Below, one piece after another: positions 40,586 to 50,514 of a stretch of 56,838 nt of DNA. Within the stretch, counting starts at the first letter, position 1. Every line of letters begins with the position of its first letter. Both the position numbers and the translations under genes were made by a program. The notes under the pieces were generated by a model. That model saw only the letters and a program-made list of their open reading frames with translations, had not been told where the DNA came from and ran no database searches. This DNA comes from Pseudomonadota bacterium (GTDB taxonomy: Bacteria; Pseudomonadota; Gammaproteobacteria; GCA-002705445; GCA-002716945). The stretch spans positions 1 through 56,838 of the forward strand of contig JAYZKL010000036.1 of the NCBI GenBank assembly GCA_036163455.1, read 5' to 3'.

Positions 40586-40662
<77 letters not shown>

Positions 40663-40735
40663 ATGTCTAAATAAATACAAAAATCCTTATTTTTTATCTA
40701 TTTAATCCAGCAATTTTGTTATACAATTGTGACAC

Positions 40736-40760
40736 AGCCCCATGAAGGGGCTATTTTATT
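40736..40760 (+). terminator. GC-rich hairpin with T-rich tail upstream of rimP (terminator/leader)
   Basis: AGCCCC-ATGAA-GGGGCT followed by ATTTTATT. Confidence 0.6.
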
Positions 40761-40773
40761 GGTTTATTCTAAG

Positions 40774-41229
40774 ATGGATAATCTTGAAGATAAATTTTAT
40801 TTGGCAATTAATAAGGTGTTGGAAAAGACTAATATGAGTTTATTGAAAGTAAATATTAATAAAAAAAGATCTGGTTATGATATTAAACTGATCATTGATT
40901 CAAAAAAGGGTATAAGCCTAAATGATTGTGCGCATGTTTCCCAGTTAACAAAAGATACTATTAACCTGGAGCAATTAATAAGTGATGATTTTAATTTAGA
41001 AGTTTCATCTCCGGGAGTAAATAGACCCTTATTCACGATAAAAGATTATTCAGACTTTGTAGGTGAAACGATAAAGGTTAAATTAAAAATACCAGTAAAT
41101 GAAAAAAGAAATATAAAGGGGAAAATTATAAGCGTTAAGGAAAATATTGTTATTTTGGAAGAAAATAATAACCAAATGAAAATTTATTTTGAAAATATAA
41201 ATAAAGGTAATTTAATAAAAGACATTTAA
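40774..41229 (+). CDS. rimP: Ribosome maturation factor RimP
   Basis: GISLNDC and LEVSSPGVNRPL motifs; start reassigned to ATG 40774. Confidence 0.94.
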   Translation: MDNLEDKFYLAINKVLEKTNMSLLKVNINKKRSGYDIKLIIDSKKGISLNDCAHVSQLTKDTINLEQLISDDFNLEVSSPGVNRPLFTIKDYSDFVGETIKVKLKIPVNEKRNIKGKIISVKENIVILEENNNQMKIYFENINKGNLIKDI

Positions 41230-41239
41230 TGGCACAGAT

Positions 41240-42751
41240 ATGAATAAAGATATTTTACTTGTTATAGAAACAGTTTCTAATGAAAAAAATGTTAGCAAAG
41301 ATATTGTTATTGAAGCAATTGAAGAGGCTCTAAAAATTGCTGTGAAAAAGAAATATAGGCTTGATAATAATGGCGAACATGATATTGATGCCAGAGTTAC
41401 CATTGATAGAGAGTCAGGAACCTATCAATCTTTTAGGCGATGGAAAGTAGTAGAAGAGTTCGAAGAAGATGAACTTAAGGAGCAACAAATTTTACTACAA
41501 GATGCTTTGGACAAACAAGCAGATATAAAAATAGATGATTATATTGAAGAAGAAATAGAATCAGCTGACTTTGGCAGGATTGTAGCATCAGCAGCAAAAA
41601 ACGTTATTGTTCAAAAAATCAGAGAAGCTGAGCGTAACCGCATGGTAGAATTATATAAACCTAAAATTGGCCAATTGATATTTGGTGTTGTAAAGCGCGT
41701 TGATAAGGGAACAATTTATATTGATTTAGGAGTACCTGATAAACAAACTTTTACTGAAGAAGCAATGATAGGAAAAGATGCTCTAATACCTCGCGAAGTT
41801 ATACGGCCAGGGGATAGGATAAGAGGTTATTTAAAGGATGTGCAATCTGAATCCAGAGGGCCACAGCTCTATATTAGTCGAACAGCACCAGAATTTCTAA
41901 TTGAATTATTTAAACTTGAGGTTCCAGAAGTTGGACAGGGTTTAATTGAAATATTAGGTGCAGCTAGAGATCCAGGGTTGAGAGCAAAAGTATCTGTTAA
42001 ATCTAATGACCCTAAACTTGATGCTATTGGTGCTTGTGTAGGCATGCGTGGCTCACGTGTACAGGCTGTATCAAACGAATTATCTGGAGAAAGAATAGAT
42101 ATAATAATGTGGAATGAAGACCCTGCTCAGTTTGTGATCAATGCAATGTCGCCTGCAGAAGTATTATCTATCGTTGTTGATGAAGATAAGAAATTAATGG
42201 ATATTGCTGTCGCTGAGGAACAGTTATCACAAGCTATTGGAAGAGGAGGGCAAAACGTTAGATTAGCTAGTGAATTGACAGGTTGGGAATTAAATGTAAT
42301 GAGTAAAGAAGAAGCTGAGAACAAAAACACAGAAGAAAACAAAGTAATTAGCGATTTTTTTATGAATGAACTACATGTTGATGAGGATGTTGCTGAAGTT
42401 CTTGCCAAAGAAGGGTTTTCAACTATAGATGAGATAGCATATTGTGTAGTTGATGAACTAAACGCTATAGAAGATTTTGATACTGAATTAGTTGATGAAT
42501 TAAGAAAAAGAGCGGTAGAAAGAATGAAAGAAAAGGAGTCAAAAATCAAAGATGAAAGCAAGTTATCAAATCTTGAAGATATTAATCAAGACATGATAGA
42601 ACAATTGAACTTAAATAATATCTATACCAGAGAAGATCTTGCTGATTTGTCTACAGATGAACTCTTGGAAATGATAGAATTAACTGAAGAAAAAGCTGGA
42701 AAAATTATTATGGATGCAAGAAAACCATGGTTTGAAGAAACTAAAGAATAG
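41240..42751 (+). CDS. nusA: Transcription termination/antitermination factor NusA
   Basis: S1 and KH domains (ARDPG, ACVGMRGSRV, AIGRGGQNVRLA) plus acidic C-terminal repeats. Confidence 0.98.
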   Translation: MNKDILLVIETVSNEKNVSKDIVIEAIEEALKIAVKKKYRLDNNGEHDIDARVTIDRESGTYQSFRRWKVVEEFEEDELKEQQILLQDALDKQADIKIDDYIEEEIESADFGRIVASAAKNVIVQKIREAERNRMVELYKPKIGQLIFGVVKRVDKGTIYIDLGVPDKQTFTEEAMIGKDALIPREVIRPGDRIRGYLKDVQSESRGPQLYISRTAPEFLIELFKLEVPEVGQGLIEILGAARDPGLRAKVSVKSNDPKLDAIGACVGMRGSRVQAVSNELSGERIDIIMWNEDPAQFVINAMSPAEVLSIVVDEDKKLMDIAVAEEQLSQAIGRGGQNVRLASELTGWELNVMSKEEAENKNTEENKVISDFFMNELHVDEDVAEVLAKEGFSTIDEIAYCVVDELNAIEDFDTELVDELRKRAVERMKEKESKIKDESKLSNLEDINQDMIEQLNLNNIYTREDLADLSTDELLEMIELTEEKAGKIIMDARKPWFEETKE

Positions 42752-42760
42752 AGCGTTATA

Positions 42761-44941
42761 ATGCAGAAAGATGATAAGACAAGTTTGTCGTTAAAAAGTC
42801 CTAAATCCAATAAGCATAAACAGAGAGGTTCTGCTGCTTCATCTAATACTGTTACTATTCAAGTAAAAAGAAAAAGAGTTCTATCAAAAAAAACGGGTGA
42901 AGTAAAAAATCCAGCAAAAGAAACTACTATTGAGACCAATCAGAAACAAATTGTAAATGAAAAAGTAAATAAACCAAACCCTCAATTCAAACAAGGAAAA
43001 AATAATAACGAAAAAAATAAAAAAAGAGATAAGTCAGATAAAGATCAAAAAATCGAGAACTTTGAAGAAAAAGAATTACACTTAAAAACAAAAAAGAAAA
43101 AAAATCAAAACCTTACAAAAAAACAAGATTCTGAAATTGATTTGACACCTCAACACCAATTTGAAAAACCTACAGAGCCAATAAAACGAGATGTAGAAAT
43201 TCCAAGCTCTATAACTGTAGGTGAGTTGGCTCAAAAAATGGCTGTTAAATCCTCAGAGCTAATTAAAGTAATGATGGGGATGGGGGTAATGGCAACCATT
43301 AATCAATCGCTAGATCAAGATACAGCAATACTTATTGTTGAAGAAATGGGTCATGTCGCAATAGGTAAAAATAATGCGACTGAAGAATCAATTTTAAAAA
43401 CTGAGCCTAGTAAACAGGAAAAGGTTGAAGCTAGGCCTCCGATTGTAACCATTATGGGGCATGTTGATCACGGAAAAACATCTTTATTAGATTATATTAG
43501 AAAGACAAAAATTGTAACTTCTGAAGCTGGTGGTATAACACAGCATATCGGGGCATACAGAGTTACAACAGACAAGGGAACAATGATAACTTTTCTTGAT
43601 ACACCAGGACATGCTGCATTCTCCGCTATGAGAGCAAGAGGGGCGCAAATAACGGACATAATAGTTTTAGTAGTCTCAGCTGATGATGGCGTGATGCCTC
43701 AGACGGAAGAAGCTATTGAGCATGCACAATCATCTAAAGTCCCAATAATCGTTGCTATTAATAAAATTGATAAGGAAAATGCAGATCCTGAAAAAGTACA
43801 AAATGAATTAAGTAAGAAAAATGTAATCTCTGAAGAATGGGGAGGAGATACTATTTTCACTAAGATTTCTGCATTAAATGGAGATGGAATAGATAGTTTA
43901 CTTGATTCTATATCGTTACAAGCAGAAATTTTAGAACTAAAAGCGCCTAAAAACGGACCAGCAGATGGGACTGTTATCGAATCATCACTAGATAAGGGAA
44001 GAGGACCTGTTGCTACAATCTTAGTGAAAAACGGGACTTTGCATAAAAAAGATTTTATTTTAGTAGGAAAAGAATTTGGCCGAGTACGTGCAATGTATGA
44101 TGAATTTAACAATGAGGTTTTGAGCGTTGAACCTGGATGTCCAGCTGTAGTAACTGGGTTATCTGGCACTCCTAATGTTGGAGATCAACTAATGTCAACT
44201 AACGATGAAAAAAGGATTAGAGAAGTTGCTTCAATGAGAGAGTCAAAGCAAAAAGAAATTGAGATGCAAGCAAAACAAAAGAATTTTAGTATTGATGATT
44301 TTAATGCCAGCAGTACATCTAATAAAAAAAGAATTGAAAATTTCCTTATAAAAACTGATGTTCAAGGGAGTTGCGAAGCGATAACAGCATCTTTGAAGAA
44401 AATTGACAATGATGATGTAGGGCTTGAAATTATTTATAGTGGCGTTGGGGGAATTACAGAATCAGATGTCAACTTAGCTCAAACCTCAAATGCAAAAATA
44501 ATAGGCTTTAATGTCCGTGCAGACTCTAAAGCTAAAAAAATAATCGAGACGAATCAGCTAGACCTAAAATATTTCAGCGTAATTTATGAACTTTTGGATA
44601 ATGTAAAACAAGATCTTTCTGGTCTTCTAGATCCAGATATTAAAGAGGAGATTATTGGAATAGCTGAAGTTAAAGATGTTTTTAGATCTTCGAAATTTGG
44701 TGCAATAGCTGGTTCAATGGTTATAGAAGGAACAATACAAAAAGAACAACCAATAAGAGTTCTCAGAGATAATATCGTAATTTATGAAGGAGAATTAGAA
44801 TCATTGAGAAGATTTAAAGATGATGTTAAAGAAGTTAAGAGCGGAACAGAATGTGGGATAGGCGTTAAAAACTATAATGATATAAAAAATGGAGATCAAA
44901 TTGAGGTTTACAAAAGAATAGAAATAAAAAGATCTATTTAA
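42761..44941 (+). CDS. infB: Translation initiation factor IF-2 (short N-terminus)
   Basis: [26 protein letters not shown] motifs. Confidence 0.98.
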
Positions 44942-44948
44942 AAACTTT

Positions 44949-45287
44949 ATGAACAATCGTTTATTCAAGATTCAAGACTTACTGCATAAAGAAATTGCCA
45001 ATCTTATTCTCAAAGAAATCAAAAATCCTTTAATAAATAAATCTATCACAATTTCTGGTGTCCGATTAAGCAAGGACATACGAAATGCTGATGTTTTTTT
45101 TACAACTTTTGAATCTGATACCCTAAAAGTAGAACAGGAATTAAATCGTTCATCAAGCTTTATAAAAAATGAGCTTTCTAAAAAACTATATATAAAGAGA
45201 CTGCCAAATCTAAAATTTATTTATGATAAAACTGCTGATAGCGGAGAAAGGATTGAAAATATAATAAAAAAAATAACAAAGAGATAA
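44949..45287 (+). CDS. rbfA: Ribosome-binding factor A
   Basis: LSKD..A.VF and PNLKFIYD motifs; infB-rbfA-truB synteny. Confidence 0.92.
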   Translation: MNNRLFKIQDLLHKEIANLILKEIKNPLINKSITISGVRLSKDIRNADVFFTTFESDTLKVEQELNRSSSFIKNELSKKLYIKRLPNLKFIYDKTADSGERIENIIKKITKR

Positions 45288-45292
45288 AAAGA

Positions 45293-46174
45293 ATGTGTAA
45301 TGGATTGTTATTAGTAGATAAACCAAAAAACCTTACGTCTAATCAAACTCTTAAAATACTAAAAAAGAGACTTAATATAAAAAAGGCAGGCATAGTGGGT
45401 ATTCTGGATCCTCTAGCCCATGGCATGTTACCAATACTTTTCGGTGAAGCTACGAAATTTTCTAGTTATATAGAGTCTTATAAAAAAAAATATGAGGTAG
45501 TTTGTCAATTAGGATCAGTTAGTACAACTGGTGATAAAGAAGGCATAGTAACTCCATACAAACAAAATAATTTAAAATTATTGGAACAAGGCTTTATTAA
45601 TACAAGATTAAAAAAATTCTTTGGAGAGTTACTTCAAACCCCACCTATGTTTAGTGGGCTCAAAGTGAAAGGAGAAAAACTCTATAATTTAGCAAGAAAA
45701 GGAATTACTATTCCAAGAAAACCAAGAAAGATTTTTATCCATGATATAAAGCTAATGAAATTTCAGGGATCAGTATTAAAATTAAGCATAGTATGCTCTA
45801 AAGGAACTTACATACGCACATTAGTAGAAGAAATTGGTAAGGACTTGTCCGTAGGAGCATATATTAAAGATTTGCAAAGAGTTGAGATAGGGAAATATAA
45901 GAAGGGCATAATGATTAAACTTGACCAAATTAAAAACCTGTCTATAACAAAAACAAATTACTTTGTAGACATTAATACCATACTCTCTGATGAAGATAGC
46001 TTTATCCTATCTGATTTAGAGGAAAAAAAGATCCGGATGGGTCAGCCAGTTCATAAAAGTTCAGAATTTCATAATAAATTAGTAACTATTTATAACAAAA
46101 ACAACATTATAGGTATAGCAGTAATCAAGAATAACTGTATATATCCAAAAAGGCTAATAAACTTTAGTGAATAA
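45293..46174 (+). CDS. truB: tRNA pseudouridine-55 synthase
   Basis: VDKP, GILDPLA (catalytic Asp), GEATKF, CSKGTYIRTL motifs. Confidence 0.93.
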   Translation: MCNGLLLVDKPKNLTSNQTLKILKKRLNIKKAGIVGILDPLAHGMLPILFGEATKFSSYIESYKKKYEVVCQLGSVSTTGDKEGIVTPYKQNNLKLLEQGFINTRLKKFFGELLQTPPMFSGLKVKGEKLYNLARKGITIPRKPRKIFIHDIKLMKFQGSVLKLSIVCSKGTYIRTLVEEIGKDLSVGAYIKDLQRVEIGKYKKGIMIKLDQIKNLSITKTNYFVDINTILSDEDSFILSDLEEKKIRMGQPVHKSSEFHNKLVTIYNKNNIIGIAVIKNNCIYPKRLINFSE

Positions 46175-46177
46175 GGG

Positions 46178-46205
46178 TTGTATTAATTTAAACTCGTGTT
46201 AGAAT
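46178..46205 (+). promoter_or_regulatory. sigma70 promoter for rpsO-pnp
   Basis: TTGTAT-N16-TAGAAT with TGn extension. Confidence 0.6.
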
Positions 46206-46227
46206 GCGGACTTTAATGTATAAATTT

Positions 46228-46497
46228 ATGGCCCTGGATAATAATTCAAAAAAGGAATTGATCAAAAAATTTGGTAAGACTGGCAATGACTGTGGTTCAA
46301 CTCAAGTTCAAATCGCATTACTTACAGAAAATATTAATAATTTAACAAATCACTTTGAGAAAAATTCAAAAGATATTCATTCGAAAAGAGGTTTACTTAA
46401 AATGGTCATGAAAAGAAAGTCATTAATGAAGTATTTGAAAAATAAAGATACTTCTAGTTATGAGGAACTTGTTAAACAGTTAGAGCTTAGAAAATAG
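46228..46497 (+). CDS. rpsO: 30S ribosomal protein S15
   Basis: GSTQVQIALLT, KDIHSKRGLLKMV motifs; start reassigned to ATG 46228 (89 aa). Confidence 0.97.
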   Translation: MALDNNSKKELIKKFGKTGNDCGSTQVQIALLTENINNLTNHFEKNSKDIHSKRGLLKMVMKRKSLMKYLKNKDTSSYEELVKQLELRK

Positions 46498-46500
46498 TTA

Positions 46501-48567
46501 ATGTTCACCAAAATATTTGATATAGGAAATCAGTCAGTCAAGATTGAGACAGGATTAATCGCAAAACAAGCAAACTCTTCAGTATTGGTTGATATAGAAG
46601 GTACAGTTGTATTAGCTACACTTGTTGCTGCCCAAGAAGATAACGATAGAGACTTTTTCCCACTTACTGTCAACTATAATGAAAAAACATATGCCGCCGG
46701 TAAAATACCAGGTGGTTTTTTTAAAAGAGAAGGCAGACCTACAGAAAAAGAAGTTTTAATTAGTAGATTAATAGATCGTCCACTTAGGCCTTTATTTGAA
46801 TCAACATATACGCGTGAAGTGCAAATAATATTAACATTACTTTCACTTAACCCAGATGTCGATTCAGAAATACCTGCGCTAATAGCAGCATCATCAGCAG
46901 TAAAATTATCAGGATTGCCATTTAATGGAACATTAGGCGCAGTTAAAGTTGGATATGATGGAGAAAAGTATTTATTAAATCCAACCGCAAAAGAACTTGA
47001 AAGTTCTTCTCTAGATTTAGTTGTTGCAGGAACAAAAAATGCTGTCTTAATGGTAGAGTCTGAAGCTAAAGAACTTACTGAAGAAGTAATGTTAGGAGCA
47101 GTAAATTTTGGGCATGAAAAAATGCAAACCATAATAAGTGCTATTGATGAATTATGTAATGAGGCAAATGTAAAAGAAATCGAGTGGGCTCCAAAAGAAA
47201 CTAATGAAGAAACCTATAATACTTTAAAAGAAAAATATAAAAAACAACTAACAGAAGCTTATACAATCACTGCCAAACAAGATAGAAATCAAACTATAAC
47301 TGAAATCAAGAATAAATTATTAGAAGAAGAAGTTAGTGAAGATGAGGACAATAGTAAAGAAATCCTCTCTCATTTTGATAAACTTCAAAAAGAGATAGTG
47401 CGTAATAAAATACTAAATGGTGAAAATCGTATTGATGGACGTGATACCAAAACAGTAAGACCTATTGATATCCAGCTTGGAATTTTACCTAGAGTGCATG
47501 GTTCAGCATTATTTACCAGAGGAGAAACTCAGGCATTAGTTGTCACAACCTTAGGTACAGATAAAGATGCGCAAATCATTGATTCTCTTTCTGGAAGAAT
47601 TGAAGATGACTTTATTTTTCATTATAATTTTCCACCTTATTCAGTAGGTGAAATAGGAATGATTGGTTCGCCAAAAAGAAGAGAGATTGGTCATGGGAAA
47701 CTTGCTCGTAGAGGTATTCAGGCTGTATTACCAGCTCAAGATAAATGCCCATACACAATTAGAGTTGTTTCAGAAATCATGGAATCCAATTGATCCAGCT
47801 CAATGGCTTCGGTGTGCGGGTCAAGTCTTTCTCTAATGGATGCAGGTGTTCCAATTTCTTCGCCCGTTGCTGGAATAGCGATGGGACTTGTAAAAGAGGG
47901 AGAAAAACATGTTGTCTTAACTGATATCTTAGGAGATGAGGATCATTTAGGAGATATGGATTTTAAGGTTGCCGGAACTGAAAAAGGTGTTAATGCATTA
48001 CAAATGGATATTAAAATAGATGGCATAACATCGCAAATAATGTCTGAAGCACTAGATCAAGCAAAAGCGGCTAGACTCCATATATTATCTGAAATGGCTA
48101 AAGTGATTACCTCACCAAGAGAAAGCGTATCGGAACATGCGCCACGCTATACACATATAAAAATTAATCCTTCAAAAATTGCTGAGGTAATTGGAAAGGG
48201 TGGAGCAGTTATAAAATCGATTGTAGAAGAAACTGGAGCAGTTATTGATATTTCAGATGATGGGATAGTGAAAATAGCCGCAACAGATCAGGCAAAAAGT
48301 GATCATGCTAAATCTATTATTGAGGACATAACAACTGGTCCACAGGTAGATAAGGTTTATGAAGGTAAAGTTGCAAAAATAATGGATTTCGGAGCGTTTG
48401 TTAATATATCTCCTAACAAAGATGGACTTGTCCATATATCCCAAATAAGCAAAGAAAGGGTAGAAAATGTTAGAGACGTATTAAGTGAAGGTGATGAAGT
48501 AAAAGTAAAGGTTCTTGAAGTGGACAGACAAGGAAGAGTGAAGCTCACAATGAAGGATCTTGATTAA
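46501..48567 (+). CDS. pnp: Polyribonucleotide nucleotidyltransferase (PNPase) with one in-frame TGA at 47791-47793
   Basis: ORFs 46501-47793 and 47803-48567 are in the same frame; joined they read [12 protein letters not shown] versus the conserved [13 protein letters not shown]; [24 protein letters not shown] and S1 all present. Functional status unresolved. Confidence 0.93.
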
Positions 48568-48829
48568 TTTAATATAAACAATAGAGGTAAAAATGGAAGA
48601 GATTGAAATAGGAAAAGTATATACCGGAAAAGTAAAAAAAATCATGGATTACGGGGCATTTGTTAATATTTTGCCTGGTAAGGATGGTTTGGTTCACATA
48701 TCTCAAATTAAACAAGAAAGAGTAGAAAATGTTAGAGATGAGATGTCCGAGGGTGATGAAGTTCAAGTTAAAGTACTTGATATTGATGGCCAAGGAAGAG
48801 TGAAGCTTACAATGAAGGATATTGACTAA
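48352..48829 (+). repeat. Diverged tandem duplication (~215 bp units) of the pnp S1-coding segment
   Basis: Units at ~48352-48567 and ~48614-48829 share GTAGAAAATGTTAGAGA, CAAGGAAGAGTGAAGCT and ACAATGAAGGAT. Confidence 0.85.
48593..48829 (+). CDS. Stand-alone S1 RNA-binding domain protein, paralogue of the PNPase S1 domain
   Basis: 78 aa; 57/71 identical by manual alignment to the adjacent PNPase C-terminus; GAGGT SD at 48584-48588. Confidence 0.9.
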
Positions 48830-50514
48830 TCAGCCATATGATGTTTTTTGTCCACTGGGCCAATTAAGAAGTTTGAAATTAAAGCTACCCCAAGAAGTAT
48901 AGCCATTAAAATCATAGTTGAGTTATAAACTGTAGTAGAAGGATCCACAGTTCCTTCTGGTGCAATTTCCATTAATTTTGGAATTGTTACAGTTTTTGTA
49001 ATTACTAATTGATTGAAGTGTTCGACTCCAGCACCAAATGTTTCTTTAAATGTTGTTGGATCTATTTTCTTTACTAATTCTTCCATTGCATTGTTTATAG
49101 AGTTTGATCTTAAAGATGTAATTGCTAATGGACCTAAAATTCCAGCAGTACTCCAAGCAGTTAATAATCTTCCATGTATCCCTCCAACATATTTAGTCCC
49201 AAAGATATCAGCCAAATAAGCTGGAATAGTGGCAAAGCCTCCTCCATACATGGTAAAAATAAGCATTGTAGCTGCATAAAAATAAATTAATAAAACAATA
49301 CTAGGGTTAACATTAACCTGTGATGCAGTATATGGGATAGATAGGTATAAAATTATCCCTAATGTAAAAAAGATATAATATGTATTCTTTCTACCAATAT
49401 AATCTGAAGTACTGGCCCAGAAGAATCTACCTATCATATTGAAGACGCTTATCATAAGAACATAAGTTGCTGCAAATGCATTATCTACAATATTTGGAAG
49501 AGCATTACTAAATATTTCAGTCATCATTGTTTTTGCTACACCTAATACACCAATTCCTGCAGTTACGTTAAAACATAGAACTACCCATAACATATAAAAC
49601 TGTGGAGTTTTAAGTGCTTGATCAATATGCACATGTTTTGTTGTAATTAATTGTTTTTCAAGAATAGCATCATCAGGTTTTTTCCAATTCTCTGGTTTCC
49701 AATCTTCAGCAGGTATTCTGTATGAAAATGATGCAACAGCCATTATTAGAAAATATATTATTCCTAATGTCACAAAAGTATAGCCAATGCCAGTATCCCC
49801 AGTGCCTACTAAATATACTCCAGGGTTTCCTGGGCGAATCATATTTGCAACATCATTATTACTTACAATAACAACTTCTTTTAACATGCCATCAATATTG
49901 GCATATCTCAATCCATCAACTGTTTGTAAAATAACTTGATCAACAGTACCTAAAAACACTGGAGCATGATAGAAGAAATCTATAAGAAATTCTTTCAAAG
50001 GCGCTCCAATCATCGCTCCACCACCAAATCCCATTATAGCCATTCCTGTAGCCATACCACGTCTATCTGGAAACCATCTAATTAAAGTTGAAACAGGTGA
50101 TACATAACCCAACCCAAGACCACATCCACCGAATACACCATAACCAAGATATATTAACCATAATTGATGTGTAAATATTCCAATGCTTCCAATCAAAAAA
50201 CCACCGCCCCAAAGGCATGCAGCAACAAAACCAACTAGACGAGGTCCAACTTCTTCTAACCATTTACCGGCAAAAGCAGCAGAAAGTCCAAGTGAGACAA
50301 TAGAAAGTGAGTAAATCCAAACAACTTCACTTAACATCCAATCTTGAGATGAGCTGACTACAACACCCAGGGTTTTAATTAATGCCGGGTTGAATATACT
50401 CCATGCATAAACAGAACCTATACACAAATGTATTGCTACAGAAGTTGGCGGAACCAACCATCTGTTAAACCCTTTATCAGCAATTATCCTTTCTTTTTTG
50501 AATATATCCATCAT
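48826..50514 (-). CDS. MFS transporter, OFA (oxalate:formate antiporter)/monocarboxylate family
   Basis: [46 protein letters not shown] motifs. Confidence 0.88.

Follow-up and report, generated by a model that had tools for sequence, protein, structure and literature searches.

A stand-alone S1 gene directly behind pnp

Why does a genome of 1.02 Mb (31% GC; G000) retain, directly behind pnp, a free-standing second copy of the S1 domain that belongs to polynucleotide phosphorylase (PNPase)? A sequence-only reading of the window (the whole stretch of DNA analysed, 56,838 nt) had raised this question and pointed to an accessory RNA-decay module. The locus comprised the following features:

40586..46174, + strand: tRNA-Met, then rimP, nusA, infB, rbfA and truB, the upstream portion of this co-oriented cluster
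46204..46497, + strand: rpsO (S15), with its stop 3 nt upstream of the pnp start
46501..48567, + strand: pnp (PNPase, 688 codons), with an in-frame TGA (47791-47793) solely in this assembly
48343..48564, + strand: PNPase S1 domain, source of the duplicate, with the family-specific residues Q1, S/T23 and N/S25 (S1 numbering)
48584..48588, + strand: Shine-Dalgarno-like GAGGT inside the 25-nt spacer between pnp and the solo gene
48593..48829, + strand: stand-alone S1-domain gene (78 aa), duplicated long ago from the S1 domain of PNPase; proposed cold-shock-protein substitute
48826..50514, - strand: MFS transporter (lactate/OFA type), convergent, its stop overlapping the solo stop

The names rimP, nusA, infB, rbfA and truB were given by recognition of the protein sequences rather than by a family scan. 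The MFS transporter is accessory and lies outside the system. It was 94% identical between G000 and G005 (L129), a genome of another genus, compared with 88–90% within the genus of G000. In both G000 and G005 it abuts the stop of the last S1 domain, possibly after a recent transfer that landed at the S1 3' end.

As first described, the 78-aa ORF started 25 nt past the pnp stop. In the part starting at K8, 57 of 71 residues were identical to the tail of the PNPase S1 domain, and 26 of these 57 used another codon, including Ser AGT/TCC, Leu CTT/TTG and His CAT/CAC. The termini read TMKDID in the solo gene and TMKDLD in pnp, each followed by the stop, and the loops ILPGKDGL and ISPNKDGL, respectively. 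Between the two paralogues in the window, pS was 0.70 and pN 0.14, with a longest identical run of 17 nt. The GAGGT motif gave a duplex energy of −7.1 versus −2.1 for pnp, calculated with the canonical anti-Shine-Dalgarno sequence, as no 16S 3' end was found in the assembly.

A chimeric join, an objection raised along with the original proposal, did not account for the ORF: contigs of two DNA runs and one RNA run spanned pnp into it, with 31 or more letters on each side. RNA-run contigs covered the solo gene in a form from which strand and level cannot be read; in one run, the 3' end of pnp and the solo gene had a greater contig depth, a measure that cannot rank genes. All three population variants listed inside the gene were synonymous. 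A promoter and terminator scan of positions 46000-49300 gave nothing above shuffles. The sequencing runs containing the stretch were marine, and the named homologues were mostly from Gammaproteobacteria, with one labelled Pelagibacterales.

The TGA at 47791-47793 interrupts the motif ESNGSSSMAS of PNPase (read as ESN, stop, SSSMAS). Three of four sequencing runs covered the site, and each of them had G (Gly) there; the TGA is thus an error or a private change of this assembly. A genetic code with TGA as Gly was rejected, as relatives and the three runs have GGA. Five more lone in-frame stops occurred in four other genes of the assembly (six in five genes in all).

Domain identity of the solo protein

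The solo protein matched PF00575 (S1) over the whole model (residues 4–75; 70.4 bits, cut-off 22) and had the five-stranded OB barrel of an S1 domain. The profile scan of the protein listed S1 families alone; PF00313 (CspA family, RNP1/RNP2) gave no cold-shock domain (CSD) match for it or anywhere in G000. TIGR03591 (PNPase) scored 105 bits against 525, covering profile positions 614–688 only. The curated NCBIfam models of GSP13, CvfD and Ygs scored 74.5, 70.9 and 52.4 bits (cut-offs 148, 117 and 175, respectively), and the matches stopped at profile position 74–78 of 113–123, the C-terminal extension being missing. The solo protein is an S1-domain protein and a member of neither the CspA nor the GSP13 family. 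GSP13/YugI, CvfD and Ygs are stand-alone S1 proteins of Bacillota, to which it was about 42% identical; unlike them, it has no C-terminal tail and arose separately, from pnp, within one gammaproteobacterial family. Compared with the C-terminal S1 domain of PNPase (PDB 1SRO, 6QH2, 7OGK), it comes without PH cores or KH domain and has its own Shine-Dalgarno site and start.

Residues were numbered by a 74-residue match to 7OGK. The RNA-facing positions reported in the 1SRO work (F635, F638, H650, D680 and R684) correspond to Y20, F23, H35, D65 and R69, with F635 replaced by Tyr. F638, kept as F23, is reported to be needed for S1 function (PMC3832800). The PNPase-Hfq-sRNA complex needs the basic loop R681, Q682, R684 and R686 (PMC8294330); all 14 solo proteins described below have G or D, Q, R and K at these positions.

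Distribution and selection within the family

The family consisted of 37 species-level genomes of about 1 Mb from six genera (g1 to g6) of marine Gammaproteobacteria. The search of relatives for S1-only ORFs 3' of pnp, proposed with the first reading, detected the solo gene in 14 of the 37, i.e. the window's genome and 13 others from three genera (g1 4/4, g2 8/10, g4 2/2). It lay directly behind pnp in all 14. In 21 genomes the site was closed (g3 2, g5 13, g6 6), with the next gene ending 0–18 nt after pnp. Two genomes were uninformative: the contig of G023 ends 12 nt past pnp, with the g2 spacer, and G050 (57% complete) had no S1 match.

All 14 copies encoded 78–79 aa and were preceded by a Shine-Dalgarno-like site of −5.8 to −8.6, calculated with the same canonical anti-Shine-Dalgarno sequence. 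Most g2 copies had a 3' hairpin, in six with a U run. Pooled within genera (35 pairs, not independent), dN/dS was 0.022 for the solo gene and 0.034 for the PNPase S1 domain. Together with the arrangement shared by 13 other genomes, this bore out the earlier view that the ORF is neither an assembly duplicate nor a decaying fragment. The spacers between pnp and the solo gene (3–27 nt) set the ORF in different frames, so read-through from pnp is not conserved.

No solo copy was found outside the family among the 397 class genomes scored (matches with E <= 1e-18 examined); three of the 397 had two matches, all from pnp-like pieces at contig ends. Likewise, 179 screened loci contained no solo gene beyond the family-type loci, and the short frames among them came from pnp genes with a frameshift or at the end of a contig. 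One solo cluster was present on at least 1000 ocean metagenome contigs. Databases label the solo proteins 'polyribonucleotide nucleotidyltransferase' or hypothetical. The solo gene is real, old and strongly conserved.

Origin of the copy

In a tree based on 73 columns, the solo domains formed one group (support 94–96) adjoining the S1 domains of the family's PNPases (95). A tree with the solos inside the non-g5 clade was not rejected on these 73 columns (p-AU 0.695), and a duplication before or after the g5 split fits. All 36 family PNPases carried the unusual S1 residues Q1, S/T23 and N/S25 at sites that are near-invariant in 151 other PNPase S1 domains. All 36 were also changed at three of the sites E5, G7, L27 and G29, whose residues are present in 145–151 of the 151 other domains and were kept in the solos. 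The residues derived in the family's PNPases occurred in the 21 genomes without the solo gene as well, with no reversion. Changes specific to the solos were Y20 in place of F635 (0 of 151 other domains), K15, T11, M51 and, in place of R681, G or D (14/14, versus K or R in 36/36 family PNPases).

The codon divergence between the paralogues had been suggested to protect the tandem repeat from recombination. The fraction of identical residues with another codon (0.49) matched that of orthologues from different genera (0.48–0.50), which indicates saturation by age and requires no selection against recombination; the suggestion finds no support. In g3, the last third of the PNPase S1 domain was closer to the solo gene (61–62 versus 55–58 of 72 nt, with three g1 references, not G001). 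A chimeric g3 domain formed by recombination collapse was nevertheless not borne out, as the informative-site test was mixed and the PNPase-type Arg was kept.

Complementary distribution of the solo gene and csp

Xia, Ke and Inouye reportedly described in 2001 that the isolated S1 domain of E. coli PNPase suppresses a quadruple csp deletion, a rescue reportedly obtained by overexpression. The hypothesis of a link between csp and the solo gene, set out from this rescue, was then tested on the family genomes. A search with PF00313 detected csp in 19 of the 37 genomes, in a single copy each, and a family Csp as query returned the same 19. These were 18 genomes without the solo gene and G006, which contained a fragment. 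Thus, csp was present in 18 of 21 solo-less genomes, while 13 of 14 solo-bearing genomes had none.

The three solo-less genomes without csp had assembly gaps at the csp locus: G041 and G046 gave no match to the 4.1-kb csp locus, and the G043 contig ends about 1.2 kb before csp. In the solo-bearing G006, the csp fragment (52 residues) was located at the end of a 4.3-kb orphan contig missing from all four relatives searched. It formed a long branch outside the family Csps, with a best identity of 54%, and is probably foreign to this genome. Unfiltered HMM searches confirmed the absences: the best E value was 2.5 in G000, and the best domain E value 9.1 across all 1,097,222 bases of G004, versus 2.9e-34 in the control G010. 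As a detection control, another gene of equal length (78 aa) was recovered from 14 of the 16 genomes of the three solo genera. Within the family, the distributions of the solo gene and csp are complementary, and it is this mirroring of the family's single csp that is new.

In a six-gene tree the two states alternated (g5 csp, g1 solo, g3 csp, g2 solo, five g6 genomes csp, g4 solo, G019 csp), i.e. seven lineages with three changes of each state. Independent pairs numbered two on well-supported branches and three on all branches; all were concordant (sign test p 0.5), or 1.5 of 2 with G006 counted as csp-positive. This contrast used quick trees of 32 genomes, with the four uninformative genomes dropped and G031 left out. 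The chance of a perfect complement was 1/35 among seven lineages and 1/20 by genus.

As a specificity control, 845 ORFs in 800 kb of the csp-bearing G010 (approximately 73% of one genome) were compared, with the g5 side represented by 86 kb of G042 only. Thirty-five ORFs were missing from both G000 and G004. Among those followed up, csp was the sole ORF with the full pattern; of the 35, about 20 that are short or unannotated stood outside the cross-genus searches, and several of these overlap DNA present in G000. One candidate was a filter artefact, NhaA was rejected because it was missing from two of two g6 genomes, and the surface-polysaccharide/phosphonate island because it had matches in g1 and g2 genomes. 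Three others had no match in five genomes, in searches run without a positive control. The island, a variable one in G010 (L372:3600-18400), encodes PEP mutase, a TPP enzyme and an Fe-alcohol dehydrogenase, a phosphonate-type surface modification that is patchy across the genera.

csp genes and other RNA-handling genes of the family

The family csp genes occupied four chromosomal sites (L172:7035-7223, L165:7012-7203, L161:6998-7189 and L166:7022-7213), two of them directly behind tRNA genes (tRNA-Glu in g3, tRNA-Met in G019). The tRNA-Glu site was empty in G000, G003, G004, G013 and G007. In five g6 genomes csp lay inside a variable block that G006 lacks at that place. The family Csps clustered with proteins labelled Bacteroidota or Balneolota (support 94, 62 columns), apart from the 14 top-scoring gammaproteobacterial Csps, and differ from the type usual in Gammaproteobacteria. 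These observations fit a history in which csp arrived repeatedly and the S1 copy was then lost; an ancestor that carried both genes, with reciprocal losses since, is a possible alternative. At L175 (G005), the stop of csp was followed by three tandem repeats of its last codons. L176 (G006:C57) and L157 (G410:C18) are small contigs that look foreign in their bins, and on the latter csp lay immediately 3' of a divergent pnp end.

RNase R/II, the DbpA-domain helicase and RRM proteins were found in none of the 37 family genomes, with positive controls. Consequently, the solo lineages are without any cold-shock domain detectable by these searches. The RNB domain was likewise found in 0 of 37, leaving PNPase as the only RNB/PNPase-type 3' exonuclease found. 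Hfq was detected with PF17209, as PF01423 did not match even the E. coli control; it was present in four of five genomes, in solo and csp lineages alike, which argues against a link between Hfq and the solo gene. The RNA-decay kit of the family, with RNase R/II, the DbpA domain and RRM missing and Hfq in four of five genomes, is unusually spare.

Proposed function of the solo protein

We consider it probable that the solo protein is a natural, non-orthologous replacement of CspA that acts as an RNA chaperone. In the family ancestor, the final ~225 nt of pnp would have been copied, with the copy gaining its own start. The predicted product is a free, acidic S1 (OB-fold) protein of 78 aa from the end of the rimP-nusA-infB-rbfA-truB-rpsO-pnp cluster, presumably co-expressed with these translation factors. 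It most likely binds single-stranded RNA with little sequence preference via the kept aromatic/basic face Y20, F23, H35, D65 and R69, and would prevent mRNA from misfolding while it is transcribed and translated, the job of the CspA family. It would do so in lineages without a cold-shock-domain protein, with the copy deleted wherever csp is present. Like the solo protein, CspA-family proteins (PF00313) are small, acidic, single OB-fold RNA-binding proteins (pI 4.6–5.7 for the family Csps, 5.0–5.8 for the solo proteins, at similar size), whereas the solo protein stems from the S1 lineage and shares no sequence homology with them. The full sequence of events, in which the family lost its native csp, the tandem S1 copy became the only small RNA chaperone, foreign csp genes were regained several times and the S1 copy was deleted each time, appears to us evenly balanced between right and wrong.

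The translation-factor cluster is cold-induced in E. coli. IF2, NusA and PNPase are listed as cold-induced there in PMC4956666. On its own, the S1 domain of PNPase is reported to relieve the cold sensitivity of the E. coli mutant that lacks four csp genes (PMC1802614). This suppressor is the same domain, freed from the enzyme and replacing CspA-family proteins, but it is an engineered construct, whereas the solo gene is a natural chromosomal gene that is under purifying selection and alternates with csp. Such rescue depends on the host, as IF1 fails to complement the csp mutant in E. coli (PMC9947658) and complements that of B. subtilis (PMC8599858). Other small RNA-binding domains also act in place of Csps or as their backup: archaeal stand-alone TRAM proteins, domains freed from larger enzymes (PMC6705878), and Bacteroides RRM-1 proteins (PMC13370968). 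They belong to unrelated domain families, and none is reported there to stem from a tandemly copied piece of pnp or to alternate with csp among close relatives. A literature search of papers outside subscription returned no description of a naturally occurring solo S1 gene linked to pnp, or of its alternation with csp.

The solo protein could instead be a general stand-alone S1 regulator in the manner of GSP13, CvfD or Ygs, acting on specific mRNAs or the ribosome and unrelated to Csp, with habitat or chance driving both genes. Habitat could indeed drive both distributions. Against the replacement reading, 65 of 398 genomes of the class outside the family had no CSD match and no solo gene was found in the matching class sample; life without Csp thus does not require the copy. 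Free S1 domains can also do more than one thing, as S1 domains alone complement some phenotypes of a pnp deletion in trans (PMC3832800). We nevertheless regard such a regulator as unlikely, given scores far under the GSP13 and CvfD cut-offs, the missing C-terminal third of the models and the finding that no other followed-up G010 gene had a complementary pattern.

Quite unlikely, in our view, is a PNPase accessory factor: the free S1 domain would compete for RNA at the KH-S1 portal, pass RNA on there or adjust the autoregulation of pnp, and the csp pattern would be chance. That all 14 copies immediately follow pnp would suit it, but adjacency is expected from tandem duplication alone. The ancestral residues E5, G7, L27 and G29, kept in the solos and lost in the family's PNPases, look like a division of labour with what is the family's only detected exonuclease of this type; the derived S1 domain, however, is present in all 36 PNPases, including those of the 21 solo-less genomes. 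The solo gene tracks the loss of csp and no change in the PNPase S1 domain, and this reading leaves the csp pattern unexplained. The lost charge at R681 of the Hfq-sRNA loop also points away from a role as PNPase-Hfq carrier, though Hfq is present. Of the accessory RNA-decay module proposed initially, the selected stand-alone RNA-binding gene has held up and its variant as a trans-acting RNA chaperone is favoured, whereas a PNPase modulator finds no support as the main reading.

An assembly artefact, a decaying remnant or a read-through extension of PNPase is highly improbable: the lone in-frame stops of the window's assembly, pnp included, would be in keeping with artefacts, but the gene's occurrence in three genera at near-constant length, its dN/dS and its synonymous variants refute an artefact or remnant, and its differing frames speak against read-through.

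If the solo protein does replace CspA, evolution would have fixed a swap known from the 2001 laboratory suppressor, and a gene would have been born in a 1-Mb genome when a domain was set free. A streamlined cell would then require one small RNA-melting OB-fold protein and no more, for which either fold suffices, and the two proteins would form a natural interchangeable pair with which minimal Csp function can be probed. It could also be asked which S1 residues make a free chaperone out of a substrate-capture domain that was tethered, with Y20, K15 and G66 as candidates. Genomes without csp seem worth searching for other stand-ins.

Besides these proteins, a histone-like protein of approximately 100 aa, rich in Lys, Arg and Ala (L394:11747-12046; near position 4219 of C70 in G000), was kept in G000, G004 and G010, with 63% K+R in G010.
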